Source: an uncultured Aquimarina sp. (lineage in GTDB: Bacteria > Bacteroidota > Bacteroidia > Flavobacteriales > Flavobacteriaceae). From it: a stretch of DNA of 64,000 nt. Below, in pieces: positions 8,884 through 26,105 of the stretch (its first letter is position 1; each line of letters begins with the position of its first letter). A program made the position numbers and the translations under genes. The notes beneath the pieces are model-generated. The model was not told the DNA's origin. It did not search any database and saw nothing but the letters and a program-made list of their open reading frames with translations. Where the stretch lies: contig CANMCO010000012.1 of assembly GCA_947496355.1 (NCBI GenBank), positions 9,705 through 73,704 of the forward strand, in the 5' to 3' direction.

Positions 8884-8910
8884 CTACCGCTAGTCTTAGC
8901 CTAGCGGTAG
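8884..8910. other. Stem-loop at the 3' end of the RHS operon
   Basis: ctaccgctag-tcttagc-ctagcggtag perfect 10-bp inverted repeat just past the lipoprotein stop. Confidence 0.55.
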
Positions 8911-8922
8911 CGGGGATTTATA

Positions 8923-9558
8923 CTAAAGCTTGATTTCTTTAAACTTATAAACTTCCCTTTTCCCCTTTAAGCTATATTCTTTCTTAACATAATCAATTGA
9001 ATCAATGTTGATATTATCTGATTCATCATACTTATGAGTCTCCAAAAATTTGGAAGAATTAGAATCAAAGGTGATTACCTTTTTCCAACCAGTTGAAGAG
9101 TCATAATACTCGAAATAGTAATTATTCTCTTTCTTAAATCCAAATTCAAAGTCTTCTTTGTTTATCGAATAAACATTCTGACATATAACCAACTCATCAT
9201 CTTCAGTTATGTACAATAAATTAATGATTGGCTCTGTTGTAAAATCTCCCAGTCTATCATCATAATCAAATTTAATAAGGTTATACTTATAGTTATTCAG
9301 ATTGTAGCTTTTGAAATCTAAAGCCAGAAAATCGGGGTAATCAACTGCAATTATCTTATTCTTTTTAAGGAACCTGACTGCTTTTGTTTTATCATCTAAA
9401 AACTTGTCATTGGAAGAACTCACCTTTATATCCTGTTGCTTCTCCTCAATTTTGGGTGTATCAATAGTTCTTCTTTCAGGTTTGACGTCAGTAGTGTTTT
9501 TTTTACAGCTTGCACAAACTAAAAGCAGTAACAATATTTTTTTAAAATTGTATACCAT
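8923..9558 (-). CDS. Lipoprotein, putative cognate immunity protein of the RHS-M23 toxin
   Basis: Lipobox LLLVCAS-C; overlaps the RHS stop by 17 nt; position directly downstream of the toxin tip. Confidence 0.6.
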   Translation of the reverse strand: MVYNFKKILLLLLVCASCKKNTTDVKPERRTIDTPKIEEKQQDIKVSSSNDKFLDDKTKAVRFLKKNKIIAVDYPDFLALDFKSYNLNNYKYNLIKFDYDDRLGDFTTEPIINLLYITEDDELVICQNVYSINKEDFEFGFKKENNYYFEYYDSSTGWKKVITFDSNSSKFLETHKYDESDNINIDSIDYVKKEYSLKGKREVYKFKEIKL

Positions 9559-12500
9559 TTGTTAATCTATCTCTTGTGTTATTATTAATTAATTTTTCCC
9601 CAGTGTATCCATTTTCTTGAGTATTCTTGAAATCTTGGAATTCAAGAGTTAAAACTCCATCATCATTCCTGTAAATCTTTACTACTCCAGTAGAGCTCTG
9701 ATTCCCATTTTCATCTTGTGTCATAAATTTGACATTTTTGTACCCTACATTGGCATCCAATAGTGTTGACCTTCTTAAGAAAGGATTATTTGGTCCTCTT
9801 AATTCTGTCCCAATCTCGAAATGTAAATGTACATTTGGATTATTTGGGTCATCAGGATAATCAGTAGCATTACCAGTAGTTCCCACTTTGCCAACTTCTT
9901 GTCCAGCTGTTACGGTATCTTCTTTACTAACAGATGTAGATTCTAAATGAGCATAAAAATGATAATATGTATCTGTTACAGTTTCAGTAATTTTTTCTTT
10001 ACCATTATAACCTACCACTTTAGACCATTTATGTGTTGTCTTTATAGTTACATAATTACCATAAGTCGTGTTTTCACCTTCAGCAACCACGTATCCTGCC
10101 ATTGATGATTGGACACTTGTTCCTGCAGGAGCATATAGATCATGACCTGCATGCCATTGTTGTCCATTACTTCTCGTAAAACCAGCCCCTAAATTACTTG
10201 CTCTGTTAACTCTTATTCTTTCCATATTGGGTAAAACATTTTCACAAGGAATACCAGGAGGACATGGTGAATTTCCATCAGGATCAATAAAATAAATAGG
10301 ATTATTAAACGAATACCCATAAGGAGACTTATCATATTGAATTAGTTCATCTGCTAAAGCATCAACATTCATCCACCTTCCTAAAGCTACATTATAGTTC
10401 CTAGCACCAAAATCTAACCACTCTAAACCTATTTCATCATTTTCTTCTTTTCCCACAAACCCATAGTTGTGATTTCTACCATTTACAGCAGAATTATATC
10501 CTTTATGTGTCAATCCAAAAGGATAATAATTCTTCTCTTGTACAATCTCATTCTGGGTAATATTACCATCTTGATTAGCATCTTTATAAGATAATCTAAT
10601 GTTATTCAGGTGATCTTTAAATTGGTAAACATATCGATATGAACTACCATTTGGTGTTGCATATCCTTCCGGCGTAAACATGAACTGTAATTGCCCATTT
10701 TCATACATATAATTCCCAGCATACACTGTTTCTGTTAAAGAACTTCCTTCTGTTACGATCTTTTTCAATTTCGCTCCAGTGGCGTCGTAAATATAAGAAA
10801 TAGTTCCTGTTCCTTCGCTATTTGATATAGAAACGGTTGTTGGCAGATTAAGATGATTATAGGTCATCCCAGTGATGCCTTTGTTACGGTCTATGACCAT
10901 GTTACCGTTGTCATCATACTCAAAATCATCGTTGATATTGGTATCGTCTTTAAATCCAAAGGCATCATTAGCCGTATCAACCACTTTAAGCAATTTATTG
11001 CCACTATCATAAGTATATGCCAAGATATCCATATCCCCAAAGGTGGTAGCCGCTGTATTGGTATGCCCTTTTCTGCTTAGAGATAAAATATTCCCCATTT
11101 TATCATAAGTCACATTACTAAGGTTATACTTGTTATCATTACTAATACCTGTTTTTATCCTGTTTAGGGCATCATAAGTATACGTATAACTACGTGTAAT
11201 ATTATCATTGGCTGTTTGCCATGATGTTTTTGAGATATTACCATTGTATAATGGGCTTGTGCCTTTATTATAGTCAATGGCAAAGCTAAATAGATCATTA
11301 CCTAGCGTATTTACATTGTTGATTCCTTTTAGCCAACCACGTACGTTGTATGTGTAGTCTACGGTTTGCAAGCCTATTGTGCCAACCACAATAGCGCCTC
11401 CTACATTCTTACTAGTAAGTTGCCCTACTTCATCATAGTTATTACTAGCAATTAACTCCTCGTCTTGATTATCGATCTTTTGGGTTTGTTGGGTAACTCG
11501 GTCCGCATGATCATATTCGTATTTATCGATTGTAATTAGAGGTGTACTTCCGTTTTTAACATGAGAAGTAGTGGTTTCCATAACTCTGCCCGTAAAATCT
11601 AATTTGATTGATGTTTTATCGATAGTGCTCAAATAATGATTTCTGCTTCCCGTCCAGATCGTTCTTCCTTTTTTGTCATAAGCTGTTACGGCTGTAATCC
11701 AATTATTAGTGCCTAAAACCCTTATTTTAGTTCCTGTTGGCAACCCTCTAACATTATTGGTAGTTGCTTCTTGGTATACTGTTGCAGGTTTATCCATACC
11801 GTGAAGGTCAAAGTTATAATCATCATAATAATTAATCGTATGAATCTCTGTAATCCCTTGTGGTATTGCATCATTAGAATAATATATTGTAGTACCCGCT
11901 ATGGTAATGCTACTACTTTGTTTGGTTTCGTACTGTTTGTATACCGTAGTATTATTTGCAGAATCCTGTATGGCTGCTCTATCACTATTATTTGTAATTA
12001 TACCCGTATATGTAACTCTACCCATAGCATCATACTTAGTAAACAACCATTTACCTTGTGCTTTTAGATTTGCATCCTGACTCATTACAGGTTGATCTAG
12101 TTTATTGTATACGATATATTCCCATCCTTTGCCCGGGATCTTTTTTTCGATCAATCGGTTTCTATAATCATATCGATATTGGTAACAGAGTTCGGCAAGT
12201 TCGGTTGTAGAAACACCGTCGGTCGTAGTTACTTTAGGTGGTAATACATACGTAAGATTACCATAATCATCATATACATAATAGGTTTCATGAGGTACCC
12301 CTTCGTTATAACTACGTTTCAAAACAATACGGCCTTGTTTATCTTTATATTCTCTGGTAGTATGATTATCACCACTTGTTGTTTTCCAGTTTTCATCTTT
12401 GGTGATGCTTACCATTAACTCATTCGCTGCATAAAAGTCTCTCTTTGTCAAACTTGGTTCTTCGGTAATACTAACATCAGTAAAAGTAACGTCAAAGCGC

Positions 12501-14926
12501 ACAACTTCGTTGGCTGAATTATGTCTCCAATCAAATTTGACGGTATGATCCGTATCACTGTTTGGATCTGCCTTCCAAGCTGTACCCGGTGCCCCTTGCT
12601 CTAGTATTCGGTTTAACGGCGAAGCTTCATAAATACTTTCTGAATAGGCATTTACTTGTGCCGGATTAGTAATGCCAGGAAAATCATTGGCATAGGTATT
12701 TAAATAATAACTATTAATATGATTAGTTACATTTACCGCTGTATATGCTCCTGTAGCTGCCTTGGTAAAAGGTAAATACTGCTTAGCTTGTCTACCCAAC
12801 TCATCATATTCGATATGAGAGATGATGTCCTGTTCTGTAGGTGATGCCTTGATCGCCGTTTGTTGTTTTGGCCTGCCCAATCCATCCATATACGTTACAG
12901 TTTCTGCCACATCTTTATTGAATTTGATCCCGCTTGGCAGAGTCATTTCTTTTAGATATGTTCTACTATACACATAGTTCTCATTATTTGATAAGGTAAG
13001 TGTATAGGGAGCATTTTTACATCCTTGTTGATCTCCAAATTCATCTGGACATAAATCAGTGCTATTTGCAACGTATCCTAGTGGTTGCTCACATGCATTT
13101 GTAGTATCGCTAGGGTCTCCTAATCCATCATTATCAGTATCGGCATACCATTTGGTATTGGGATGAACCCCCGAATTAGTATCATCACAATCGGTTACAG
13201 GAAGTACACTACGTATATATCCAGACCCTGGACTAGTACATTGGGTTTTGGTACTACCTGCAAAACCATCGCCATCACTATCCTTGTACCAAATCGTATC
13301 AGGGTGAATGTTGATATCATCATCATTACAATCTCCTAATGGTTTTACAGTTAAACTATAACCATTTCCCGGGTTACTACATTGCGTCTTAGTCGTACTG
13401 GCAAAACCATCACCATCACTATTCTTATACCAGACTGTATTAGGATGAATAGCAGCATTACTATCATTACAATCTCCCAATGGTTTTACAGTTAAACTAT
13501 AATCACTTCCCGGACTACTACATTGTGTCTTGGTCATACTAGCAAAACCATCACCATCACTGTTCTTGTACCAAACTGTATTAGGATGAATAGCAGCATT
13601 ACTATCATTACAATCTCCTAATGGCTTTACAGTTAAACTATAACCACTTCCTGGACTGCTACATTGCGTCTTGGTCATACTGGCAAAACCATCACCATCA
13701 CTATTCTTATACCAAACAGTATTAGGGTTGATTGAAGCATTACTATCATCACAATCAGATACAGGCATCGAAGTATAGGTATATCCTGATCCTGGGCTAC
13801 TACATCTTACTAAAGTACTTGCAGCAAAACCATCACCATCACTATCCTTATACCATTTAGTATTAGGATGAATCTTATTATTGTTATCATTACAATCGGT
13901 TACTGGTAATACATTATACGTATATCCAGCTCCTGGAGAACTACAACGAGTTGTCTTGCTACTGGCAAAGCCATCACCATCACCATCCTTATACCAAACA
14001 GTATTAGGGTGGATATATCTATTACCATCATTACAATCGGTATTATTGATCACATATCCTAATGGTTGATTACACCCTTTAAAAGTAGTTCCCGAAGTAC
14101 CAAAGCCATCACTATCGTTGTCTTTATACCAAATAGTATTAGGATGAATCGCCGCATTGTTATCTACACAATCACTATTATTAGTTACATATCCGCTTGG
14201 CTGTAAACTGCGATAAAGTCGATCCACAGCTGCTTGAGAACCATACGTATCCTTGTCAACATCTCTATAAAAATATCGAGGAGTGATATTGGTGATCCAT
14301 TTGTCACTATCGTTGATATCATCATCATTACTTACATAACCTGACGGCTGCGTACATTTTTTTGTCGTTGAGTTCTTATTTCCCCATCCATCACCATCGG
14401 CATCTCTGTACCAAGTTTTATTAGGATTGATTGAGGCATTACTATCATTACAATCACTATTATTAGTGACATAACCTCCCGGACGAACACTACGGTAAAC
14501 TTTTACACTGGGGTTACCGTAACCATCCCCATCTGCATCTCTATAAAAATTTCGAGGAGCAATATGAGTAATATGAATATTATTATCATCTCTATCATCC
14601 TTGTATAGCACATACCCTGATGGCATGGCACACTGTATTTTTATAGGACTGGTTCTTCCTCTTCCATCACCATCAACATCTCTATACCATCTCGTTGTAG
14701 GGTTGATAACTGCATTAGCATCATTACAATCCGTTTTATTGGCTACATAACCACTTTGTGAACTGGTAACATAAGAGGAATTTGGGTTGCCATATCCATC
14801 ACCATCGCTATCACGATAATACTTGGTAGTACCTCCACCTCCATCACTTGGGCCATCAGTTAATTGCGCTTGTGTTGTGTACCCTAACAGTAGTAGGAAT
14901 ACAATCATATATATGTTATTTTTCAT
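9542..14926 (-). CDS. RHS repeat-associated core protein (DUF6443-type) with N-terminal DxDGDG repeats and C-terminal M23 peptidase domain
   Basis: Signal peptide; 13 (W/F/Y)YxDxDGDG-type repeats; TYMDGLGRPKQ; YD repeats; core EKNYYPFG, DFGARNY, YSFNNPIYFIDPDG; M23 motifs HAGHD, YAHL, HLHFEI. Confidence 0.9.
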   Translation of the reverse strand: MKNNIYMIVFLLLLGYTTQAQLTDGPSDGGGGTTKYYRDSDGDGYGNPNSSYVTSSQSGYVANKTDCNDANAVINPTTRWYRDVDGDGRGRTSPIKIQCAMPSGYVLYKDDRDDNNIHITHIAPRNFYRDADGDGYGNPSVKVYRSVRPGGYVTNNSDCNDSNASINPNKTWYRDADGDGWGNKNSTTKKCTQPSGYVSNDDDINDSDKWITNITPRYFYRDVDKDTYGSQAAVDRLYRSLQPSGYVTNNSDCVDNNAAIHPNTIWYKDNDSDGFGTSGTTFKGCNQPLGYVINNTDCNDGNRYIHPNTVWYKDGDGDGFASSKTTRCSSPGAGYTYNVLPVTDCNDNNNKIHPNTKWYKDSDGDGFAASTLVRCSSPGSGYTYTSMPVSDCDDSNASINPNTVWYKNSDGDGFASMTKTQCSSPGSGYSLTVKPLGDCNDSNAAIHPNTVWYKNSDGDGFASMTKTQCSSPGSDYSLTVKPLGDCNDSNAAIHPNTVWYKNSDGDGFASTTKTQCSNPGNGYSLTVKPLGDCNDDDINIHPDTIWYKDSDGDGFAGSTKTQCTSPGSGYIRSVLPVTDCDDTNSGVHPNTKWYADTDNDGLGDPSDTTNACEQPLGYVANSTDLCPDEFGDQQGCKNAPYTLTLSNNENYVYSRTYLKEMTLPSGIKFNKDVAETVTYMDGLGRPKQQTAIKASPTEQDIISHIEYDELGRQAKQYLPFTKAATGAYTAVNVTNHINSYYLNTYANDFPGITNPAQVNAYSESIYEASPLNRILEQGAPGTAWKADPNSDTDHTVKFDWRHNSANEVVRFDVTFTDVSITEEPSLTKRDFYAANELMVSITKDENWKTTSGDNHTTREYKDKQGRIVLKRSYNEGVPHETYYVYDDYGNLTYVLPPKVTTTDGVSTTELAELCYQYRYDYRNRLIEKKIPGKGWEYIVYNKLDQPVMSQDANLKAQGKWLFTKYDAMGRVTYTGIITNNSDRAAIQDSANNTTVYKQYETKQSSSITIAGTTIYYSNDAIPQGITEIHTINYYDDYNFDLHGMDKPATVYQEATTNNVRGLPTGTKIRVLGTNNWITAVTAYDKKGRTIWTGSRNHYLSTIDKTSIKLDFTGRVMETTTSHVKNGSTPLITIDKYEYDHADRVTQQTQKIDNQDEELIASNNYDEVGQLTSKNVGGAIVVGTIGLQTVDYTYNVRGWLKGINNVNTLGNDLFSFAIDYNKGTSPLYNGNISKTSWQTANDNITRSYTYTYDALNRIKTGISNDNKYNLSNVTYDKMGNILSLSRKGHTNTAATTFGDMDILAYTYDSGNKLLKVVDTANDAFGFKDDTNINDDFEYDDNGNMVIDRNKGITGMTYNHLNLPTTVSISNSEGTGTISYIYDATGAKLKKIVTEGSSLTETVYAGNYMYENGQLQFMFTPEGYATPNGSSYRYVYQFKDHLNNIRLSYKDANQDGNITQNEIVQEKNYYPFGLTHKGYNSAVNGRNHNYGFVGKEENDEIGLEWLDFGARNYNVALGRWMNVDALADELIQYDKSPYGYSFNNPIYFIDPDGNSPCPPGIPCENVLPNMERIRVNRASNLGAGFTRSNGQQWHAGHDLYAPAGTSVQSSMAGYVVAEGENTTYGNYVTIKTTHKWSKVVGYNGKEKITETVTDTYYHFYAHLESTSVSKEDTVTAGQEVGKVGTTGNATDYPDDPNNPNVHLHFEIGTELRGPNNPFLRRSTLLDANVGYKNVKFMTQDENGNQSSTGVVKIYRNDDGVLTLEFQDFKNTQENGYTGEKLINNNTRDRLTNGIQF
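13020..14830 (-). repeat. Intragenic array of about 46-47-aa DxDGDG/Cys repeats; central copies are near-identical 141-bp units
   Basis: atcattacaatctc recurs at 13322, 13463 and 13604 (141-bp period); boundaries approximate. Confidence 0.8.
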
Positions 14927-14945
14927 GTTTTCTTACTTTTGGGAA

Positions 14946-17900
14946 TTAGTTCTTGTAATGATATTTGTTTTCTGAAACCAGCTTGCCTTCGGCATCACGA
15001 ACATATTGCAGTCGATTATAAGTATCATACTCGTAGTATACTGTATATCCCCTAGGATCTGTCATACTTGTGACTCCAATCATAGGATCATATGTATATG
15101 TTGTAATCATTACCGTACTAGGAAGAACTGTTCTTAAATTATTTAACGCTTGACGTAGTGCTCCTTCAGTCCCGGAATTTCCTATGGCATGATCGGTATC
15201 CAGATTGGATTTAGATTCGATATTGTCTATATAACTCGATACTGCACTATAGGTAGTGTTTTCTAATTTGGCTAAGGGATATTGGTGATTATATCCCCAG
15301 ATATATACCATAGGGGTACCATCTGTCTTGGCCACTTGTCTGGGATTACCAAAATCATCATACAAGGTATAGACTACTCTTTTTTCTAAATCGTTTAATC
15401 CGTTCGAGGTTTGCACCTCTTCTGGTAGTACTAGGTTATTTCCCCATATTTTATGTTTGGTGTATACTTTATAAAGTACGTTCTCGGGATCCGTTCCTTC
15501 TTTTTTAGAGGTGATCACTTCTATTGGAGCAGCAATATGGTGTTGATCGATCAGGAGTTGTTCGGCATTCGACCTATTCACAGTAGCAATATCTTGTGGG
15601 TAAATCGTTTGGGTTTTGATTAACTTTCCTTTACTATCTATAGTTTCGGTTCTGGTTTGTTGTAAATGCTGTGTATTATCATAGAAAAAATTCTTGGTAG
15701 TTGTGATCGGATTTTCGCCATTACGATCGTACTGTCTGGCAACACGTTTACTTATCGTATGCCATTGTGTTTTTAAAGAGTATTGACCTATTGCGAAAAG
15801 ATTATTCTCGAAGGTAAAATTTTCGGTCTCTACATAAGAAAAACCTTCCTTCATCTCCGCTTCTCTGCGTACTACATATACATTAGTGTCTTTATCTAAA
15901 ACAGCATTTTTATTATAGATGTTTTCGATTTCAGATACCTTTTGAAACTGATTTCCATTTTTAGTATAGGTAGTGATTCCTTTATTTCTTCCAAAGCCAA
16001 AGAAATTACTATTTCTGATACCCGATATATAGTCCCCCTGTATTGTAAATGCAGGTTCGATAGCAAAACTACCTTCAAATTCGTGTTGTACTGCTCCTCC
16101 TGCAAAGTTGTTACCCAACTCTTCGATCACATTACTATATCCGATATGGTATCCCTGAGCATACAATGAAAACAAGGTGTTTGCTGTAATGGTCGTATAG
16201 CCACACTTGTTGGTACTAGAGCATATTCCCGATCCGTCAGGACCAGCGCCAGTGTTTCCGGTGCCACTTGTATTACCAGAGTTCCTAGAGCTCGAACCGC
16301 CAGAACCTCCAGAACCACCATTGGAACCTCCTCCAGAATTAGTATTATCTCCCTGACTATTAGGGCCATCACCTGTGCTTCCCCCTCCATTACCTATCGT
16401 ACCTGAAGAACTTTCCATACAAAATAGCACTCTAGAATTGATTACAGTAGGCCTTAGATTTCTATTAAAAATGCTCCCCGAGTCACAGTCTAAACAATCC
16501 ATTGTACCGTAATGATACTTCTTAGTTTCTATTTTACCACTGTCATTTAATGTATTCACTTGTTGAATGCGCATCCCGCCTACAGGGATATTTTCCTGAG
16601 TAATAATCATAGGCGCATCATAATAACGTAATGTAACACCAGACAATGAATACCCTGGATCTAACTGAATCGTAAATCGATAGGCATGTCCTTTCTCTAA
16701 TTTTACATACATCGACCTGGAAAAGTTCCTACTATACACACCATAAGGAGTCATAAAAGGATTCTGTCCATGAATATCAGACTCACCATACACTGGTTTT
16801 GTTGTACCCGTGGTGAGATCCTGAACCTCGATTAAGGCGATATTAAAATCGACAGTAGTAAAGGTACCATCCTCTGCAGCAAAAAAATCATCCAGATTTG
16901 CTTTAAAAGACAAAAATCCTTTATGATCAAAATCAACATTGGGAATATCAAAACTATTGGTTAGCAAACCATTTTGGGCAACATCTGCAGTTTTCGTAGC
17001 TATAGGAGGATAATTTTTTACTTTGCCATAGTAGGCATGACCTTCATAGGTAAATTCATTGCTTCCTCCTAATGGATAAGTTACTCCTTTCAATAGCCCT
17101 TTAAATGCAAAAGAAGGGTCTGGTGTGCGGTTGGCCGCCTTAAAAGAGCTCAACGCATTAAGTAATAAATAATTACCCGAGATTGCGTCAATAGTTCTTT
17201 GATCGATCAGGTTTTCATTTTGATTTTTTCCATTGTAAAACCCCCAATGATCCTGTGCATATGAGAATCGCGAAGGTAAATCTTCGGGGTTGAAATATGC
17301 AAATGTATGAGGAGGCAAGCCGTTACCATTTTTATCTACTTCGGTGATAGATGATAAAAAATATCTTTTGCTATAATATTCTTGCGAAATGATATCATTA
17401 TTTGAAGGGCCGTTACTGCCTGTAATCAAATAGGCGAGGTCGAAACTTTTTATCACTTGAGCATGATAATCATGTATGGTAATATGATCCAACTTCTTAA
17501 AACCGGTTGGCATCTGTGCTTTCTGAGAATACTCAAAAGTGATCTTTCCGGCAGCTGTAGAGTTGATTTCGGTAAGATAACTGAAATTTCCTGTGGCAAA
17601 GGTTAAATATGCATTTTCACTTGATGGAATGTCGCAAAATCTGGGAGCTACGCCGTAATTGGTTATGCTATTTTCTTTGTTGATACTTTGTGAGATACCA
17701 TTAGAATAATTCACACCTCCTTTTGCATACGAAAAAGTTATCTCGTCTCCAGACGGATGTGTCATTTTAGTTAGATACCAGGCAGACGCAACATTCTCAG
17801 GCCCTTCGGGATTATCAGCCTGATTACTGGCTTGGTATCTAAATTTTTCTATAGCATTGGTCCCTCCAAAATAATATATTACCCCAGTAGGGTCTGTAAT

Positions 17901-18479
17901 CTTAAAATGAGTTTCCTGATTTACTTGTAATAGTTCTACTTTTAAAGGACTAGGTTCTAAAAAGACAACATTTCTAGAATACATAAAGGTACTATTGTCG
18001 TCTAGATAAAACTTACCACTGTATCCATTAAAACTAAATGAAAAAATATCAGGTTGTGTATCTACGGCATTGTTACCCGATCCTGTAGCTGCAATTACAA
18101 AATTGTATTGATCTACACTGGCATCAAGATTTACTTGACTAGCCGGTTTGTATTGATTTTCGTCTTTTTGCCCAAATACTGTTCTCGTAATAACTCCATT
18201 AGCAGAGAGATTCCATCCCAATCCCAACGAGGATGAGTATTCGTCTATTCTAATTCCGTTAGAACTATAATTTATACTAATAGGTAATTGTAAAGCTCCT
18301 GACTTAAATTGATAAATTGGAATACCCAATTGTGGTGTCCCTGTAAAAAGGCCAACCGGAACTTGACCATATTTTCCTATGGATGAAGCCTCTGGTGATT
18401 GTGGAAGAATATTTTGCAATGTCTGCCCCATGGCAATGGTGCATACCATTACCTGCATGAATATGAAAAGTTTTTTCAT
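14946..18479 (-). CDS. Large secreted YD/RHS-repeat protein (SpvB/TcB-like N-terminus), partner of the downstream RHS core protein
   Basis: Signal peptide; GLFTGTPQLGIPIY...LPISINYSS...LGLGWNL...ITR; C-terminal YTYDPMIGVTSMTDPRGYTVYYEYDTYNRL. Confidence 0.75.
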   Translation of the reverse strand: MKKLFIFMQVMVCTIAMGQTLQNILPQSPEASSIGKYGQVPVGLFTGTPQLGIPIYQFKSGALQLPISINYSSNGIRIDEYSSSLGLGWNLSANGVITRTVFGQKDENQYKPASQVNLDASVDQYNFVIAATGSGNNAVDTQPDIFSFSFNGYSGKFYLDDNSTFMYSRNVVFLEPSPLKVELLQVNQETHFKITDPTGVIYYFGGTNAIEKFRYQASNQADNPEGPENVASAWYLTKMTHPSGDEITFSYAKGGVNYSNGISQSINKENSITNYGVAPRFCDIPSSENAYLTFATGNFSYLTEINSTAAGKITFEYSQKAQMPTGFKKLDHITIHDYHAQVIKSFDLAYLITGSNGPSNNDIISQEYYSKRYFLSSITEVDKNGNGLPPHTFAYFNPEDLPSRFSYAQDHWGFYNGKNQNENLIDQRTIDAISGNYLLLNALSSFKAANRTPDPSFAFKGLLKGVTYPLGGSNEFTYEGHAYYGKVKNYPPIATKTADVAQNGLLTNSFDIPNVDFDHKGFLSFKANLDDFFAAEDGTFTTVDFNIALIEVQDLTTGTTKPVYGESDIHGQNPFMTPYGVYSRNFSRSMYVKLEKGHAYRFTIQLDPGYSLSGVTLRYYDAPMIITQENIPVGGMRIQQVNTLNDSGKIETKKYHYGTMDCLDCDSGSIFNRNLRPTVINSRVLFCMESSSGTIGNGGGSTGDGPNSQGDNTNSGGGSNGGSGGSGGSSSRNSGNTSGTGNTGAGPDGSGICSSTNKCGYTTITANTLFSLYAQGYHIGYSNVIEELGNNFAGGAVQHEFEGSFAIEPAFTIQGDYISGIRNSNFFGFGRNKGITTYTKNGNQFQKVSEIENIYNKNAVLDKDTNVYVVRREAEMKEGFSYVETENFTFENNLFAIGQYSLKTQWHTISKRVARQYDRNGENPITTTKNFFYDNTQHLQQTRTETIDSKGKLIKTQTIYPQDIATVNRSNAEQLLIDQHHIAAPIEVITSKKEGTDPENVLYKVYTKHKIWGNNLVLPEEVQTSNGLNDLEKRVVYTLYDDFGNPRQVAKTDGTPMVYIWGYNHQYPLAKLENTTYSAVSSYIDNIESKSNLDTDHAIGNSGTEGALRQALNNLRTVLPSTVMITTYTYDPMIGVTSMTDPRGYTVYYEYDTYNRLQYVRDAEGKLVSENKYHYKN

Positions 18480-18627
18480 AAAATGTTTGAATTTGTATTT
18501 TAATTAATCCCCTAAAAATGATCAATAACATTTGTTCGTTTACGCTTTAAAAAGAAGCCATTGAAAAAGAATATTTAACTCATATGTACAGTTGTTCAAT
18601 CCATATGACAGAGATCATTTATAGGGT

Positions 18628-18635
18628 CAAATGTA
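18628..18635 (-). promoter_or_regulatory. Candidate -7 promoter box for the RHS operon
   Basis: TACATTTG on the minus strand matches TAnnTTTG. Confidence 0.45.
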
Positions 18636-18932
18636 ATTGCAATACAATCAGAAAGGCAAGAAGTAACACCATCAATTCCGTGAAACGGAACCGATAAAAA
18701 CGGCTGTAAAATATTGTAATACAGAATTTTACATAAATTTTTAAAAATACCTTAATTTATAAAAAGGTAATCTCATAAAACTTATAAAGTGGCTATTACA
18801 AGTAAATCAGGAAACTCATTTTACAGATCTCAAAAATACTATCCTCTAAATTTGGAAGGTAAATTTTTACTATAGAAGATGAAAAACAGGGGCTTGAAAA
18901 AGGGGATAAATAATTACAAATATTTTGCTAAG

Positions 18933-18971
18933 CTCTGCTCCTTTTAAAATTTATAATTATGGTTTTTTGAA
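18933..18971 (+). repeat. 39-bp perfect direct repeat, copy 2
   Basis: Identical to 5884-5922. Confidence 0.9.
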
Positions 18972-19023: not shown

Positions 19024-19584
19024 TTATAATGCATTTTTAGTCTTCAACCATTTTACCATTGTGGGAGAAATCTTTTTCCTTTCTAAAGCTCTTAAAGGTT
19101 TTGTTTTGGCTTCTTTCTGGATTAAAATGTCTACAATTTCTTTGTGATTCTCTAAAACCGCAAATACAAGAGCCGTTTTTCCGGATCCAATAAGTCCAAA
19201 TGTTTTTGCTTCAAGATTTGCCCCGGATTCTAATAAAACTTGCACAACTTCTTTTGCATTATTCTTAGCAGCAAACATAAGTGCTGTCATACCATTTATT
19301 TTATGACAGATCTCGATTTCTGCATTATTATTAATAAGAAGTTTCAAAGCTTCTACTGCATTAGTTTCTGCAGCATGCATTAAAGCAGTAGCCGGACCAC
19401 CTATGCTTTTTTCATTATAATGATTTAAATTCGCTCCCTTTTTTATGAGTAACTCTATAGCACTAGTCACATTTTGACTACACGCCTTCATTAATGGTGT
19501 TTCCCCCATGGCATCTTCAGAATGAACATCAATACTGTCAATGTTTCTTAATAAGGCTTTTATTTTATCTGATAGACTACTCAT
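19024..19584 (-). CDS. Ankyrin repeat protein
   Basis: GETPLMKAC, TALMHAA, GMTALMFAA, GKTALVFAV repeats. Confidence 0.9.
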   Translation of the reverse strand: MSSLSDKIKALLRNIDSIDVHSEDAMGETPLMKACSQNVTSAIELLIKKGANLNHYNEKSIGGPATALMHAAETNAVEALKLLINNNAEIEICHKINGMTALMFAAKNNAKEVVQVLLESGANLEAKTFGLIGSGKTALVFAVLENHKEIVDILIQKEAKTKPLRALERKKISPTMVKWLKTKNAL

Positions 19585-19607
19585 AAATTAAAGATGGGTT
19601 AGTGTTC

Positions 19608-20114
19608 CTAAAAAGATATTTCTATAAATAATTTATCTTTTGGGGAAATAGTCCATAGCTTTCTTATTAGTTTTTCAAGATCATCTTGAAGTTGATGCTC
19701 ATCTAGGTAATCAAATATCAAATACCTGTAAACAGCATCTGGTTTGCTTTTTAACAAATCTATTAGTTTAAAATATTCTTTTGATTGCACCCAGTGTTTC
19801 ATTGTAGTAAACAAAGGCAAGGATTCTTCTATACTCACTAACGTACCTGTATCTTTATTTGGATCCGTGGTATCATAAAAAACCCGTTCAAAGATATTGA
19901 TATCACCTCCCGATTGCTTACATATATAAAGTAGTATAGAATCATCCATCCAATCATTTTTCAACCATAATCTATCAATTCCATAACAGTGGGTAAATTC
20001 TGTGTCTAGCCAAAGTAATTCATTAACAACTCCTTCTGAATTCACTGAAACTAAATTCGTACTAGGGCGACCTCCAATTTTAAAGAGTGAATGTGCATCT
20101 TTGATTCCTTTCAT
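19608..20114 (-). CDS. Hypothetical protein
   Basis: 168-aa ORF directly upstream of the ankyrin gene; no recognised motif. Confidence 0.55.
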   Translation of the reverse strand: MKGIKDAHSLFKIGGRPSTNLVSVNSEGVVNELLWLDTEFTHCYGIDRLWLKNDWMDDSILLYICKQSGGDINIFERVFYDTTDPNKDTGTLVSIEESLPLFTTMKHWVQSKEYFKLIDLLKSKPDAVYRYLIFDYLDEHQLQDDLEKLIRKLWTISPKDKLFIEISF

Positions 20115-20313: not shown

Positions 20314-20355
20314 AAACAAAAAAATCCGGTTGATGTAACCGGATTTTTTTTGTTT
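20314..20355 (-). terminator. Intrinsic terminator after the micro-peptide cluster
   Basis: aaacaaaaaaatccggtt-gatgt-aaccggattttttttgttt inverted repeat with T/A tracts on both sides. Confidence 0.75.
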
Positions 20356-20368
20356 GCAATTCTATATT

Positions 20369-20527
20369 TTAGCACTTCTGACATAATTCATACTCTAGAC
20401 CTCCAGACTCGTTACCTCCGGTTCCACTGCCTCCACAAGCACAGCTTCTTTCTCCTCCATTAACTTGTGTTAAAACCTTTCTTTCTAATGTTTGTACCCC
20501 TTCTAAGTTTAAAATGTTTGCTAACAT
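20369..20527 (-). CDS. Double-glycine-leader micro-peptide (52 aa), not in ORF track
   Basis: MLANILNLEGVQTLERKVLTQVNGG|ERSCACGGSGTGGNESGGLEYELCQKC; leader paralogous to three other ORFs in the window. Confidence 0.75.
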   Translation of the reverse strand: MLANILNLEGVQTLERKVLTQVNGGERSCACGGSGTGGNESGGLEYELCQKC

Positions 20528-20538
20528 AATTTATACGT

Positions 20539-20574
20539 TCCCTGAGCGTCTAAAGACATTCAGGAATTATGTCT
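20539..20574 (-). promoter_or_regulatory. Conserved 36-nt upstream element, copy 1
   Basis: Transcript strand agacat-aattcctga-atgtct-ttagacgc-tcaggga; homologous to 20934-20969 and 21214-21249. Confidence 0.6.
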
Positions 20575-20750: not shown

Positions 20751-20906
20751 TTAATAACAATCACATCTCCCGGTATTGCCATCTGGCTTTCCACCTAAAG
20801 GTCCACAAAGAGCGTAACAGTCTACTCTCCAACCTCCATTTATTGACTTTTGTTCTTTGTTACCCAACTTCGTTGCGTTTTCTAACTTTAAAATGTTTTC
20901 TAACAT
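20751..20906 (-). CDS. Double-glycine-leader micro-peptide (51 aa) with defensin-like Cys spacing, not in ORF track
   Basis: MLENILKLENATKLGNKEQKSINGG|WRVDCYALCGPLGGKPDGNTGRCDCY. Confidence 0.75.
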   Translation of the reverse strand: MLENILKLENATKLGNKEQKSINGGWRVDCYALCGPLGGKPDGNTGRCDCY

Positions 20907-20933: not shown

Positions 20934-20969
20934 TTTCCAAACATTTATAGACAGTCAGAAACTCTGTCT
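20934..20969 (-). promoter_or_regulatory. Conserved 36-nt upstream element, copy 2 (most diverged)
   Basis: Transcript strand agacag-agtttctga-ctgtct-ataaatgt-ttggaaa. Confidence 0.55.
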
Positions 20970-21044: not shown

Positions 21045-21185
21045 TTAATGACACTGGCTGTTTGTGCTACCTGTATGACCATAGCAGTTTAATCCAGGAG
21101 CATGCCATTCTCCACCTTTTACAATGACTTGTTGATTTCTGTCTAATTGATTTACCCCTTCTAAATTTAAAATGTTTGCTAACAT
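21045..21185 (-). CDS. Double-glycine-leader micro-peptide (46 aa), not in ORF track
   Basis: MLANILNLEGVNQLDRNQQVIVKGG|EWHAPGLNCYGHTGSTNSQCH. Confidence 0.75.
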   Translation of the reverse strand: MLANILNLEGVNQLDRNQQVIVKGGEWHAPGLNCYGHTGSTNSQCH

Positions 21186-21213: not shown

Positions 21214-21249
21214 TCCCTGAGCGTTTATAGACATTCAGGGATTCTGTCT
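21214..21249 (-). promoter_or_regulatory. Conserved 36-nt upstream element, copy 3
   Basis: Transcript strand agacag-aatccctga-atgtct-ataaacgc-tcaggga. Confidence 0.6.
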
Positions 21250-21352
21250 ATATCCTAGTATTAAATGAGAGCATAATAAATTAATTATAATCGCATTGTT
21301 AAGAACAAATATAGAAGCGGTTATAGGTAAAAGACAAATGAAGTAAGTGGCC

Positions 21353-21384
21353 TTTCAAGGAAAACACACTGTGTTTTCAAGGAA
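21353..21384. promoter_or_regulatory. Tandem TTTCAAGGAA sites, candidate operator
   Basis: TTTCAAGGAA at 21353-21362 and 21375-21384 (22-bp period), between divergent peptide and TPR-AraC genes. Confidence 0.55.
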
Positions 21385-21478
21385 TCAATTGTTACTAAAA
21401 TGATGTCAAAAACAATAAATCCAATTTTTGGTTTTATCCTAAGTAAACCTTTAAATTTGTTGAACAAAATATCTTTAG

Positions 21479-23197
21479 ATGCCATATACCATTCTATTGT
21501 TTCGTATAAAAAGTAAGTGTTTTATACTATTTCTATTATTTAATAGCCTTAATCTTTTTGCATTTCAAACCTCTTATGATAGCTTACTTACCAAAGAGTA
21601 TTCATATCTAAAAAAAATGGTTTCCAAGCATGTAAGGGACTCTTCAAAAGCAAGTATATATATCCAATCGCATCTTTTTAAAGCAAAAAAAGATGTTGAT
21701 ACTACCGAAATAGTGAATGGGTTTTATTATTACTCAGGTATTACTAAGGATGAAAAAATTAAAGAAAAATATCTGGATAGTATGATTCTATTCTCAAAGA
21801 ATCTAAAAACAAAACATTATCCAGCACTTGCATATTATAGAAAAGGAAAAATAGAGTATAATAAAGGTAATTTTAAAAATGCGCTAGATTTATATCTTAA
21901 AACCAATGAAAAAGCAAAAGAATTCGAAAATACCCATCTTTTTTATGCCAGTAAAAAAAGTATAGGAATATTAAAAAGTAGGATTGGAGAACACAAAGCG
22001 GCATTAACAGAACTTAAGGAATGTCATCAATATTATTCAAAATTAAAGAAGGGTAAACCAATAAACTATTTAGGTACATTATTTGCACTGGCCGATTCCT
22101 ATAATTTGAATAAAAAGCTAGATTCGGCAACGACTATGAATATCCTTGGGTATAAAGAATCTATAGCATTTAAAAAAGAAGACTTCAAATACTACTTTAC
22201 ATTAAACGAAGGGATTAATTTATTTGATAAAAAAAACTTTACCACAGCAAGAGATAGTTTATCAATCGCTATTGAAGAGTTTAAAATTAATGACGACAGA
22301 GCCAATCTGTCTATGGCTTACTTTTTTTATGGAAAAACATTGACAGCATTAGGTAAAGAAAAAGAAGCCATTGCTGCACATATCAAAGTAGATGAGATAT
22401 TCGAGGAAATATCTGAAATTATGCCCAATAATCGAGAGAATTATGAAATCTTAATCAATTATTACAAAAAATTAGATGATAAGGATAATCAGTTAAAATA
22501 CATTCAACAGTTAATTACCGTAGATAGTGTATTACACACTAATTATCGATATCTAATGAAAGCTGTAGTACAGAATTATGATACCCCAAGATTACTTTCG
22601 GAAAAACAAGAAATTATAGATAGTTTAGAAACCGGAAAAAAAACATCGTATACAATTATTAGCATTTTGGCAATTGCCAGTCTTTTGCTATTTGTCTTAT
22701 GGTTGATTAATCGACGTAGACAAAAGCAATATAAACAGCGTTTCGAAGAACTCTATTACAAACAAGATGCTCATAAAAAAGAAGAAAATCAAACGGTATC
22801 ACATAAAGAGAAAACAAAACTTGCTATCCCAGAAGAAAGTATTAAAGAGGTTCTTAACAAATTGGCAATTTTTGAAAATGAATTAGGGTTTATCCAACCT
22901 GATTTATCAATTAATTTTTTAGCAAAGAGATTTGGAACCAATTCTAAATATTTGTCCAAAATTATTAATACCTATAAAAAGAAATCATTTAATCAGTACA
23001 TCAATGATTTAAGAATCAATCAATCAATCATAAAACTAAAAGAAGATGCTAAATTCAGGAACTACACTATAAAAGCAATTGCTCAAGAAATAGGCTTTAA
23101 TACTACGGATGCTTTTTCTAAAGCTTTTTACAAACAAAACGGAATCCATCCTTCCTATTTTATAAAAGAATTAGAAAAGCAGATTAAAGCTGTATAA
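21479..23197 (+). CDS. TPR-repeat, single-pass transmembrane, AraC-type HTH regulator (copy 2)
   Basis: TPR helices (GNFKNALDLYL, GEHKAALTEL, GKEKEAIA), TM IISILAIASLLLFVLWLI, AraC HTHs INFLAKRFGTNSKYLSKIIN and TIKAIAQEIGFNTTDAFSKAF; paralog of 6012-7724. Confidence 0.88.
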   Translation: MPYTILLFRIKSKCFILFLLFNSLNLFAFQTSYDSLLTKEYSYLKKMVSKHVRDSSKASIYIQSHLFKAKKDVDTTEIVNGFYYYSGITKDEKIKEKYLDSMILFSKNLKTKHYPALAYYRKGKIEYNKGNFKNALDLYLKTNEKAKEFENTHLFYASKKSIGILKSRIGEHKAALTELKECHQYYSKLKKGKPINYLGTLFALADSYNLNKKLDSATTMNILGYKESIAFKKEDFKYYFTLNEGINLFDKKNFTTARDSLSIAIEEFKINDDRANLSMAYFFYGKTLTALGKEKEAIAAHIKVDEIFEEISEIMPNNRENYEILINYYKKLDDKDNQLKYIQQLITVDSVLHTNYRYLMKAVVQNYDTPRLLSEKQEIIDSLETGKKTSYTIISILAIASLLLFVLWLINRRRQKQYKQRFEELYYKQDAHKKEENQTVSHKEKTKLAIPEESIKEVLNKLAIFENELGFIQPDLSINFLAKRFGTNSKYLSKIINTYKKKSFNQYINDLRINQSIIKLKEDAKFRNYTIKAIAQEIGFNTTDAFSKAFYKQNGIHPSYFIKELEKQIKAV

Positions 23198-23240
23198 AAT
23201 CATTGTTAGCAAGCTAACAACCCTTCATTTCAATAGTCCG

Positions 23241-23253
23241 TTTTCCCTGAAAA
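23241..23253. promoter_or_regulatory. Palindromic candidate operator TTTTC-cct-GAAAA
   Basis: Same core and same 53-nt spacing to a TATATTTG box (23300-23307) as at 7759-7771/7818. Confidence 0.55.
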
Positions 23254-23475
23254 CAGGTAATAACCCATAAAAAAAACACGATTTCATCGTATTACTAATT
23301 ATATTTGATTTAGAAATAATAAAAACATTTGCTAAAGACATTTACTAGTAATTTGGGAAAATAAAATATCTATAAAGTAATATGTCGTTTCAATTTTTGA
23401 GGGTATGAAAGGGTTAAAATGTAGCTTATATTAATTTATTATTTCTGGTCAAAACCTTTAAATGAAAAACAAAAA

Positions 23476-23655
23476 ATGAAAAACAAAAAATTAAGTTTGC
23501 GGAAAATAACAGTCACAAAATTGGATAACTTACATAATATTCAAGCAGGTGCTCCTGTTTGCCCTACTCTTCCACACGAGAGCTGCACAACAAAACCTTT
23601 TGAAGATGAAGATTTTACAGAAAATGGAACCTTAATAGGTCCCGGGTTTATTTAA
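23476..23655 (+). CDS. Small leader-core peptide (59 aa), not in ORF track
   Basis: MKNKKLSLRKITVTKLDNLHNIQAG|APVCPTLPHESCTTKPFEDEDFTENGTLIGPGFI; paralog of 23675-23875. Confidence 0.75.
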   Translation: MKNKKLSLRKITVTKLDNLHNIQAGAPVCPTLPHESCTTKPFEDEDFTENGTLIGPGFI

Positions 23656-23674
23656 AAAATATACTTCTTAAAAT

Positions 23675-23875
23675 ATGAAAAATAAAAGACTAAGTTTACA
23701 GAAAACGACGATCACTAGACTAAATAATTTGCATAGTGTTAAGGGTGGTAATTTTCCTTCAGAATTTGACACAACTCCAATAGGCACAGCTCCAAGTGAG
23801 AGACCAACAACTAAAACTGCTGAAGGTGATGATTTTACAGAAAACGGAACCCTAACAGTTCCGGGGTTATATTAA
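23675..23875 (+). CDS. Small leader-core peptide (66 aa)
   Basis: Leader RLSLQKTTITRL...VKGG; C-terminus DFTENGTLTVPGLY shared with upstream paralog; no Cys. Confidence 0.72.
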   Translation: MKNKRLSLQKTTITRLNNLHSVKGGNFPSEFDTTPIGTAPSERPTTKTAEGDDFTENGTLTVPGLY

Positions 23876-25136: not shown

Positions 25137-26105
25137 ATGAACATAGCCTACCTAAAAGAAAAACGAAAGTGTCCTATAACTAAAGAAAAAGTTTTAAATC
25201 TTCAAACGACTAATGGTATTTATTATAAGCTTGAAATAAAAGATAAGACATATAGCTTACGCTTTTGTGAAAGCTGTTTTGAAAAAATTAATTTTAAAAA
25301 ATATAGAAGTACAATCTTTGGTTTAATCCTTAATGAAAAAATAGATATAAATGATCGTAATCTAATAATTCATTGGGATAAAAAAGGAGATGATTTTTTT
25401 GATCTAAAACAATTTATAACAGAATCGTATTACCCTCGAACTCCAAAAGAAAAATATGACAATCTAATTTCTGAATTATTCAAAAGACAATCGGCAATAG
25501 GTCACAATATAGCTTATCTAAATCTGAAAAATGATATGCTAATTGAAAAATCCTACTTTGATAGTAGTGGTGAATTCCTAAAATACATAAACGCTCTCGA
25601 AGAAGAAAAACTTATTAATTGTAACTATTCGTCGGGTAAAAGTTTAGATTCACTAATACTAAATATTACGTTTAAAGGTTTCACCTATCTGGATCAACTA
25701 GAAAAAACTGGGTCAGAATCTAAAAATTGCTTTATCGCTATGGCTTTTAAAAATGAAACTGTACCCGCAAGAGAGGCTATAAAAAATGCAATAATCAAAA
25801 CCGGATTTATTCCAATCATAATTGATGAACAAAATATTGATAGTGATCAAACTATAAACGACGCAATTATTGCGGGTATCAAAAAATCGAAATTCTGTAT
25901 TTCTGATTTTTCATTTCATAGGAATGGGGTCTATTTTGAAAGTGGTTATGCCCTTGGACTAGGAAAACCAGTAATTTATTGTTGTTCTAAGGAAGAATTT
26001 AAAAATGCACATTTCGACATTAAACCTCTACAACATATTATTTACGATTCTCCCGAACAACTAGAAAAAAACTTAATTCACAAAATAGAAGCTTGGATTA
26101 AATAG
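25137..26105 (+). CDS. Hypothetical protein with C-terminal TIR-like/nucleoside 2-deoxyribosyltransferase-like domain
   Basis: CFIAM.F, II..IKKSKFCISD, NGVYFESGYALGLGKPVI; upstream ITFKG winged-helix-like end and an N-terminal CP..CxxC. Confidence 0.65.
   Translation: MNIAYLKEKRKCPITKEKVLNLQTTNGIYYKLEIKDKTYSLRFCESCFEKINFKKYRSTIFGLILNEKIDINDRNLIIHWDKKGDDFFDLKQFITESYYPRTPKEKYDNLISELFKRQSAIGHNIAYLNLKNDMLIEKSYFDSSGEFLKYINALEEEKLINCNYSSGKSLDSLILNITFKGFTYLDQLEKTGSESKNCFIAMAFKNETVPAREAIKNAIIKTGFIPIIIDEQNIDSDQTINDAIIAGIKKSKFCISDFSFHRNGVYFESGYALGLGKPVIYCCSKEEFKNAHFDIKPLQHIIYDSPEQLEKNLIHKIEAWIK

Follow-up and report, generated by a model that had tools for sequence, protein, structure and literature searches.

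The window analysed here, a stretch of 64,000 nucleotides from an uncultured Aquimarina species (C12:9705-73704 of a 5.03-Mb assembly; GC content about 33%), encodes two paralogous copies of a putative membrane-anchored transcriptional regulator, each followed by two genes for small peptides with export leaders. We focus on the second copy, an open reading frame of 572 amino acids (21479-23197, plus strand) characterised using the open reading frame list, Pfam, an AlphaFold2 model and hydropathy, on the peptide genes that lie on both sides of it, and on the two promoters that drive them. Together, this regulator and its local regulon belong to a large and apparently undescribed family of Flavobacteriaceae regulators that span the membrane once.

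The regulator begins with a signal peptide recognised by hydropathy (residues ~1-29, ending in LFAF/Q), which is followed by eight tetratricopeptide repeat (TPR) hairpins (residues ~40-331; Pfam and model), a stalk with a membrane helix (residues 335-427, transmembrane segment 392-410; model, hydropathy and positive-inside counts) and, after a linker, an AraC-type helix-turn-helix (HTH) domain (residues ~442-571; Pfam and model). Pfam assigns TPR_12 (PF13424) at 36.7 bits against a cut-off of 30.1 and HTH_18 (PF12833) at 46.7 bits against 33.6, the latter spanning residues 481-562. In the AlphaFold2 model, computed from a 70-sequence family alignment with a mean pLDDT (predicted local distance difference test) of 87, the TPR part comprises 16 helices arranged as eight hairpins (residues 41-331, pLDDT above 90), the helix from 335 to 427 runs unbroken through the hydrophobic stretch 392-410 and leads into a disordered linker, and the AraC-type domain consists of seven helices (residues 452-571). 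With a C-terminal HTH_18 domain containing two helix-turn-helix units the protein belongs to the AraC/XylS family, and its tandem hairpins form a superhelix as in other TPR proteins. A Foldseek search with the TPR domain returned eight-repeat, peptide-binding TPR superhelices, with LGN/Pins ranking first, eukaryotic scaffold proteins as top matches and RapJ, NprR and a phage Rap further down; this likeness is generic. All 70 aligned family members carry at the N terminus a hydrophobic segment that ends in AFQ, AYQ or AQ, and all 70 possess a single internal membrane helix that is preceded by 2-5 and followed by 4-8 lysine or arginine residues. Because of this N-terminal segment and the excess of positive charges after the membrane helix, sequence rules place the TPR domain outside the cytoplasm, in the periplasm, and the HTH domain inside.

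Downstream of the regulator, on the same strand, lie two peptide genes with a KLSL-type leader. Peptide A (23476-23655, plus strand, 59 amino acids; MKNKKLSLRKITVTKLDNLHNIQAG followed by APVC...) carries an AG cleavage motif (...NIQAG) that is kept in its closest orthologue, L044, and a core of 34 residues with two cysteines and a net charge of -5 (APVCPTLPHESCTTKPFEDEDFTENGTLIGPGFI). Peptide B (23675-23875, plus strand, 66 amino acids; MKNKRLSLQKTTITRLNNLHSVKGG followed by NFPSE...) has a leader ending in GG (...SVKGG) and a core of 41 residues without cysteine, likewise with a net charge of -5 (NFPSEFDTTPIGTAPSERPTTKTAEGDDFTENGTLTVPGLY). Both leader ends are of the GG/GA/AG type that marks peptides exported by C39-peptidase transporters. 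Negative charge is common among such peptides: of 81 regulator-linked cores 88% are net negative, with a median charge of -3. Their cysteine count varies from 0 to 6 without pattern, eight cores having none and 16 a single one.

Upstream of the regulator, three further peptide genes are encoded on the minus strand, as the initial annotation had described. The first (20369-20527; MLANILNLEGVQTLERKVLTQVNGG followed by ERSCACGG..., four cysteines) has an orthologue at the equal position in the relative L035, the second (20751-20906; MLENILKLENATKLGNKEQKSINGG followed by WRVDCYALCG..., four cysteines) has orthologues of 59-63% identity in L039 and L040, and the third (21045-21185; MLANILNLEGVNQLDRNQQVIVKGG followed by EWHAPGLNCYGH..., two cysteines) is the first gene behind the divergent promoter. 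An intrinsic terminator with a 14-bp stem followed by a T run (20318-20350, minus strand) closes the operon. These peptides of 46-52 residues contain 2-4 cysteines and share a leader, MLxNILxLEG...GG, that is distinct from the KLSL leader. As all five MLxNIL-type peptides of the genome are divergent neighbours of a regulator paralogue, at less than 1 kb, and three paralogue clades are involved, peptides on both sides of the regulator are a recurrent and probably co-regulated design. An AGACA...TGTCT element, pointed out in the initial annotation, precedes each of the Cys-rich peptide genes (20539-20574, 20934-20969 and 21214-21249); since it is also found ahead of the corresponding L031 peptides (tatagacattcagaaattctgtctg), it is conserved across species.

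The first copy of the cassette (regulator at 6012-7724) allows a comparison within the window. Its regulator is 37% identical to that of copy 2 over 551 residues, and the identity is distributed unevenly, amounting to 33% in the TPR domain, 19% in the transmembrane segment, 25% in the linker and 62% in the HTH domain. The characterisation of the two as paralogous receptors with a conserved HTH and a more divergent TPR region is borne out by these values and by the motifs NSKYLSKIIN and IKAIA.EIG.N...AFSKAF, which occur in both copies. The same is true of the two KLSL-leader peptides downstream of copy 2, whose cores are unrelated to the Cys-rich cores of the copy-1 peptides (7848-8090 and 8145-8363).

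The association of regulator and peptide extends well beyond the window. By tblastn the genome contains about 14 full-length regulator paralogues; for at least eight of them, a profile made from the leaders of the local peptides detects a peptide of this type that starts 100-280 nt downstream on the same strand. The regulator family is represented in 35 of 61 related genomes, with up to 19 copies per Aquimarina genome. When the best loci of related genomes were inspected, 23 of 30 had a downstream peptide, as did 64 of 77 related loci obtained by a pattern scan of representative genomes of Aquimarina, Flavobacterium, Kordia and Spongiimicrobium. In a profile search of 401 genomes, the full-length regulator architecture was detected in 81 of 302 Flavobacteriaceae genera, and 12 of 20 loci fetched from further genera again carried the downstream peptide. 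Because at least eight of the roughly 14 paralogues and 64 of the 77 related loci share this peptide placement, the regulator-peptide arrangement is, judged by these genomic counts, far beyond chance. Such comparisons firmly support a widespread family of regulators composed of signal peptide, TPR domain, membrane helix and AraC domain, each encoded with at least one double-glycine-leader peptide. A full-text search of the literature returned no description of this cassette, which is real and conserved and appears to be undescribed; the known frame into which it falls is the peptide-linked control of bacteriocin-type genes.

Positional orthologues of copy 2, which are 60-84% identical and occupy an equal chromosomal position, keep the gene order of regulator, one or two peptides, class-V aminotransferase and mfd. 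In our window an open reading frame of 322 amino acids (25137-26105), whose C-terminal domain weakly resembles nucleoside 2-deoxyribosyltransferases, separates the aminotransferase gene from mfd; it has a counterpart in none of the 11 orthologous loci compared, where the aminotransferase gene is mostly followed directly by mfd.

The spacer between the regulator and peptide A contains a palindrome (23239-23255, centre 23247) of the sequence C-GTTTTC-CCT-GAAAAC-A, the copy-2 clade form of which is TGTTTTC-N3-GAAAACA. Its centre is 53 nt from the -7 box of the downstream promoter, which we term P_right; this box, TATATTTG (23300-23307, plus strand), fits TAnnTTTG, the consensus of Bacteroidota -7 promoter elements. 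In ten of 12 orthologous spacers the TGTTTTC/GAAAACA arms and their distance to the -7 box are kept while the three loop bases vary, and the interval between the box and the start codon of the peptide ranges from 30 to 250 nt. Alignment of all related spacers on the -7 box places a TTC-N2/3-GAA core in this fixed register, centred 53 nt before the box, in 47 of 56 related promoters, compared with 1.2% of 7,580 TAnnTTTG boxes genome-wide and 7.9% of arbitrary 21-nt windows taken from these spacers. As the arms are conserved without compensatory change and stand at a fixed place relative to the promoter, the palindrome carries the signature of a protein-binding site. The core on its own is of little use for defining a regulon, with 242 TTTC-N3-GAAA sites in the genome and a correspondingly high risk of chance matches; a strict in-register search of the genome added few sites.

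The alternative that such palindromes are terminators, RNA hairpins or sites of an unrelated global factor, the adjacency of regulator and peptide then having no direct regulatory meaning, draws on the position of the P_right palindrome about 40 nt past the regulator stop codon, a plausible place for a terminator, and on the frequency at which the TTC-N3-GAA core occurs by chance. As an RNA the palindrome is weak, however (-3.4 to -4.8 kcal/mol, z = -1.7), it is followed by no U tract, and it was not called in the terminator scan, so that we rejected it as a terminator. The arm conservation described above and the constancy of the 53-nt register across genera also speak against this alternative, as does the matching of half-site flanks within loci, differing between clades in the way expected for a locus-encoded factor, which is described below; on balance we hold it to be very improbable.

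The leader ahead of the peptide A gene (23308-23475) is unusually long, at 176 nt versus 30-50 nt in several orthologues, and contains GGGAAAATAAAAT, a sequence found again in L034 and L038, whose leaders are likewise long. An Rfam scan of the spacers and of this long leader gave nothing near gathering scores.

The divergent promoter, P_left, drives the minus-strand peptides. Its -7 box, TATATTTG (21306-21313, minus strand), was read from the sequence, and the conserved CAAATATA is found at a fixed distance from a double operator in eight orthologous loci, in which the whole block of double operator and P_left is conserved. The two operator-like sites are GCCTTTC-AAG-GAAAACA (21350-21366), whose centre at 21358 is 45 nt from the P_left box and which is kept in orthologues, and TGTTTTC-AAG-GAATCAA (21372-21388), whose centre at 21380 is 22 nt from that of the first site and 67 nt from the box. 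Double sites 21-22 nt apart occur upstream of regulators at 30 loci from several clades and genera. A locus-matched palindrome in a fixed register at the peptide promoter, often accompanied by a double operator at the divergent promoter, is the second feature that these alignments firmly support. A candidate -7 box of the regulator gene itself, TAAATTTG (21452-21459, plus strand), has TAAGTTTG at the equal place in L031 and L039. Autoregulation of the regulator is not supported, because the double operator is in register with the divergent promoter and not with this candidate box, its distance to the regulator start varying from 57 to 230 nt across orthologues.

The output of P_left differs between relatives. 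In our genome and in L031, L035, L039 and L040 it consists of one to three Cys-rich MLxNIL-type peptides, and in L032, L036 and L038 of a secreted protein of 1,470-1,840 amino acids that heads an RHS toxin operon and is homologous to the window genes 14946-18479 and 9542-14926. The full double operator directly drives this homologous RHS operon in the three relatives. In our window, a degenerate TTTC-ACG-GAAT stands 45 nt before TACATTTG on the minus strand at 18620-18700, upstream of the RHS-associated gene of 1177 amino acids, a spacing equal to that at the copy-2 divergent promoter.

The surroundings of the minus-strand peptides may have been rearranged. In L031, L035, L039 and L040 a TerB-like gene comes immediately after the Cys-rich peptides that lie upstream of the copy-2 regulator; in our genome some 14.5 kb separate these peptides from the TerB-like gene (5414-5872), with the copy-1 cassette and the RHS system in between. 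The intervening block (5884-18971, bounded by a 39-bp direct repeat according to the initial annotation) is followed by the ankyrin and 168-residue genes (19024-20114), and the displacement of the TerB-like gene fits an insertion or rearrangement of the block. The ankyrin-repeat protein (186 amino acids) and the 168-residue protein, for which no family match was found, travel together and flank the copy-2 cassette in the relatives L031 and L037; possibly they are orphan immunity genes of polymorphic toxin systems.

Comparison of the operators across the family shows that only the TTC-N2/3-GAA core and its geometry are family-wide. The four bases outside each core triplet differ by clade; the copy-2 clade has TGTT, for example, Flavobacterium GAAA, and other clades GATA or TGTA, and the copy-1 operator is GCCTTTTC-TCG-GAAAAGGC. 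Within a locus, the flanks of upstream and downstream sites match at 3.4 of 4 positions, a value that falls to 2.2 when clades are compared with one another (p=0.0002 by permutation, with each of 12 clades represented once); as a guard against bias, the upstream double sites had been located by the generic core pattern alone. This matching supports binding of both sites by the regulator encoded at the locus. The proposal that the operator stays fixed while sensor and peptide change has therefore to be abandoned: because the half-site flanks are clade-specific, DNA specificity appears to diverge along with the rest of the system.

The proposed joint divergence of sensor and peptide fares better at the level of clades. 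Core types follow the regulator clades. The cores of the copy-2 clade share an acidic C-terminal motif, [FIL]-x-T-E-[DEN]-G, and a subgroup that includes peptide A, with orthologues in L044, L046, L049, L058 and L059, is characterised by C-x7-C...TK..ED..FTExGTL; the next clade, with regulators 47-55% identical, has RPT[EQ]...C.C cores, and further clades have DLTTRPRESV..NNCES or MSGLECTWS. Across 64 loci, cores are more dissimilar where the TPR domains are more distant (r=0.44). With HTH distance as a covariate, the association persists as a weak tracking of peptide by TPR divergence (partial Mantel r=0.25, p=5e-4; converse r=0.12); tests of this kind do not separate out the effect of physical linkage. 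Selection was assessed domain by domain from the ratio of nonsynonymous to synonymous substitution rates (dN/dS), as the initial annotation had suggested. Within the copy-2 orthogroup the pairwise values are 0.07-0.14 in the TPR domain against 0.05-0.10 in the HTH domain, rough estimates given a dS of 0.5-1.5; the TPR domain is under purifying selection, and no positive selection on it is seen in these comparisons. The evidence fits co-divergence at the level of clades together with, at most, recognition of a short conserved epitope, and does not show diversifying selection to be under way. Charge shows a weak inverse relation between TPR domain and core (rho=-0.30, p=0.018, uncorrected for phylogeny). 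The TPR ectodomain has a net charge of +10 in copy 2 and averages +6.5 in the family, which per residue exceeds the mean of the genome by roughly one standard deviation.

These observations can be combined into the following mechanism. The regulator would be exported by means of its signal peptide such that the eight-repeat TPR superhelix faces the periplasm, joined through the single membrane helix to the cytoplasmic AraC-type DNA-binding domain. This domain would bind TGTTTTC-N3-GAAAACA, present as one copy at P_right and as a double copy at P_left; P_right would drive the two KLSL peptides, and P_left the three Cys-rich peptides or, in some relatives, the RHS operon. Both peptide sets would be cut and exported by C39-peptidase ATP-binding cassette (ABC) exporters encoded elsewhere in the genome, and one or both mature acidic KLSL peptides would return to the TPR groove in the periplasm and activate the regulator, a positive feedback by which the antagonistic peptides would be turned on too. 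From the conservation and register of the sites, it is likely that the regulator binds the palindromes and controls both promoters, with antagonism genes as the output. That the TPR domain in the periplasm has as its ligand the acidic KLSL peptide exported from the adjacent gene, which would close the loop, is plausible to us at somewhat short of an even chance. This step draws on the clade-specific core motifs, the partial Mantel correlation, the mostly negative cores set against a net positive TPR ectodomain, and the peptide-binding TPR superhelices among the best structural matches. We regard the explanation as a whole, with membrane regulator, palindrome control and peptide feedback, as evenly balanced between right and wrong. 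In its widest form the model would amount to a hitherto unnoticed form of peptide quorum sensing in a Gram-negative phylum, practised by Flavobacteriaceae, C39-exported peptides being read by periplasmic TPR domains in up to about 19 parallel channels per genome that differ in sensor, peptide and half-site and switch on bacteriocin-like peptides and RHS toxins; this we put forward only tentatively.

Several points weigh against the feedback step and its setting. Any regulator that is linked to its target gene would be expected to show adjacency, co-inheritance and Mantel correlations. In the copy-2 orthogroup the TPR domains share 81-90% identity, with a dN/dS of about 0.1, where the cores share as little as 32% and at most 90%; a TPR domain that reads the peptide could thus recognise no more than a short stretch that is conserved, for instance the C-terminal [FIL]xTE[DEN]G. 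Copy 1 breaks the charge complementarity, with -5 for its TPR domain and -4 for the core. The spacing between operator and regulator promoter is not conserved, which does not indicate classic autoinduction of the receptor. No exporter is encoded within the 64-kb window, and peptides sent across both membranes would have to re-enter the periplasm. AraC domains usually bind asymmetric or direct-repeat sites and not palindromes. Lastly, a search for RNA runs of the organism returned none, the only hit being a marine sediment metagenome with part of the stretch.

The main rival explanation accepts control by the palindromes and regards the peptides as mere products, bacteriocins or other secreted effectors, with the TPR domain sensing another cue such as a partner protein, the state of the envelope, a molecule from a competitor or a signal from a host or an alga. 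The operator evidence is in keeping with it, as this supports control and is silent on the input; the partners known for TPR superhelices are of many kinds, with eukaryotic scaffolds at the top of the Foldseek matches; and the TPR domain is conserved where the cores change quickly. Many family members, moreover, reside in bacteriocin-like clusters with exporters. The cores themselves fit this explanation less well, being mostly acidic, hydrophilic and often free of cysteine, where typical bacteriocins that act on membranes are cationic. At the copy-2 locus the KLSL peptides have no immunity-like gene with them, and the divergent side holds a separate, more bacteriocin-like class of peptides, which leaves the KLSL peptides without an obvious effector role. 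We take this explanation to be a serious possibility, though one that probably does not apply.

The genome encodes four full-length C39-peptidase ABC exporters, two of which lie with an HlyD partner directly beside regulator paralogues (C9:100.5-103.9 kb and C1:656.9-660.2 kb), and by coordinates an adjacency of exporter and regulator is also found in many relatives. The region C9:96.7-109.0 kb comprises seven tandem KLSL-leader genes, then HlyD and the C39-ABC exporter, and then two regulator-peptide units on the opposite strand; a palindrome, CGAAATTC-NN-GAATTTCG, stands at both of these units and again inside the peptide array (C9:99143).

The leader also raises the question of peptide chemistry, in that the KLSL peptides could be precursors of class I lanthipeptides or of other peptides that are made on ribosomes and altered after translation (RiPPs), modified in trans by LanB and LanC, with the regulator as pathway activator. 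Against the NCBIfam Bacteroidota leader model NF038153 (cut-off 22 bits), peptide B scores 22.8 bits and the copy-1 peptides 24-25 bits, and the genome does possess one LanB (C12:114009-115964, about 40 kb past the end of the window) and two adjacent LanC genes (C12:114-118.7 kb for the three), along with two lone LanC-like genes. LanB, the two LanC and two adjoining leader peptides form a class I lanthipeptide cluster at C12:114009-120034, and between its LanC genes an operator-like CGGTATTC-CA-GAATATCG is found at C12:117447, 45 nt before a -7 box. As the cluster is located at a contig end, a neighbouring regulator could be missing from the assembly. Peptide A stays below the cut-off with 17.3 bits, however, and the KLSL leader also scores against the non-lanthipeptide family TIGR04149, so that it marks an export class and not a chemistry. 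With regard to the combination of cysteine and serine or threonine that a lanthipeptide core needs, peptide A alone would qualify; peptide B has no cysteine. Because of this, and of cysteine counts from 0 to 6 in the 81 regulator-linked cores, the lanthipeptide interpretation cannot hold as a general one. Genes for LanB, LanC, radical-SAM or ATP-grasp enzymes are present neither in the window nor beside most cassettes. We consider this interpretation unlikely. A graspetide or microviridin assignment, suggested by the T-x-K...D/E core motif, was rejected, with no ATP-grasp gene nearby, a 322-residue neighbour that is deoxyribosyltransferase-like, and a KLSL leader that presumably lacks a microviridin-type motif.

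Bacteroidota are dominant in the oceans and in animal guts, and to our knowledge peptide-based cell-cell signalling, textbook material for Firmicutes, is essentially undescribed for them. The cassette provides a concrete candidate, with receptor, peptide, operator, promoters and likely outputs all specified at the level of single bases. Should it indeed sense peptides, it would represent a new receptor architecture of periplasmic TPR domain, one membrane helix and AraC domain, would account for the timing with which marine flavobacteria release bacteriocin-like peptides and RHS toxins, and would offer apparently separate sets of peptide-inducible promoters for genetic tools in Bacteroidota. 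Even with the peptides as products only, the analysis defines a regulator family that is widespread, together with its operator and a rule by which small peptide genes can be found that annotation pipelines usually miss. New in this analysis are the divergent promoter with its double operator and its outputs, the 53-nt register across the family with its statistics, the matching of half-site flanks within loci, and the domain-wise selection and Mantel analyses.

Among known systems, the RRNPP peptide receptors of Firmicutes (PlcR-PapR, NprR-NprX, Rap-Phr, Rgg-SHP, ComR-ComS and AloR-AloP of Paenibacillus) share with the cassette a gene for a TPR superhelix receptor beside a gene for a small secreted peptide, many divergent receptor-peptide pairs per genome and a peptide gene that is the likely target of the receptor; RapJ, NprR and phage Rap are also among the Foldseek matches. 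RRNPP receptors are cytoplasmic, however, and read re-imported peptides, whereas here the TPR domain is predicted to be periplasmic, with a signal peptide and membrane anchor in all 70 members. They also carry an N-terminal XRE-type HTH, a phosphatase-type N-terminal domain or neither, in contrast to the C-terminal AraC-type HTH of the present family, which further differs by its double-glycine leaders and its Gram-negative Bacteroidota host. At the sequence level, no membership of the regulator in RRNPP was found.

The feedback logic of antagonism is shared with the Blp, Com and Pln induction systems (BlpC/BlpH/BlpR, ComC/ComD/ComE, PlnA/PlnB/PlnCD) and with NisRK and SpaRK. Like the cassette, the Blp/Com/Pln type combines a double-glycine peptide exported through a C39-ABC transporter, co-regulation with bacteriocin-like peptides and one operator at nearby promoters. 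These systems employ a histidine kinase and a response regulator acting on direct repeats, while here a single polypeptide would act on a palindrome. No kinase-regulator pair lies beside the copy-2 cassette, the hybrid kinase at 3835-5379 being in a separate operon.

The double-glycine RiPP precursors of Bacteroidota (NF038153, TIGR04149, PF14406) have the same KLSLxKxxIxxL...GG leader. They are defined by adjoining modification enzymes (LanB/LanC, radical-SAM/SPASM or ATP-grasp), whereas the peptides described here adjoin a regulator and display no consistent pattern of cysteine, serine and threonine. ToxR, CadC and VtrA, finally, resemble the regulator as single-pass proteins that link a periplasmic sensor to a cytoplasmic DNA-binding domain. 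They have an N-terminal cytoplasmic winged-helix domain and a C-terminal periplasmic sensor, an order that is reversed in the present family, which uses a different DNA-binding fold and, unlike ToxR, CadC and VtrA, combines it with a TPR domain and an adjacent peptide gene.

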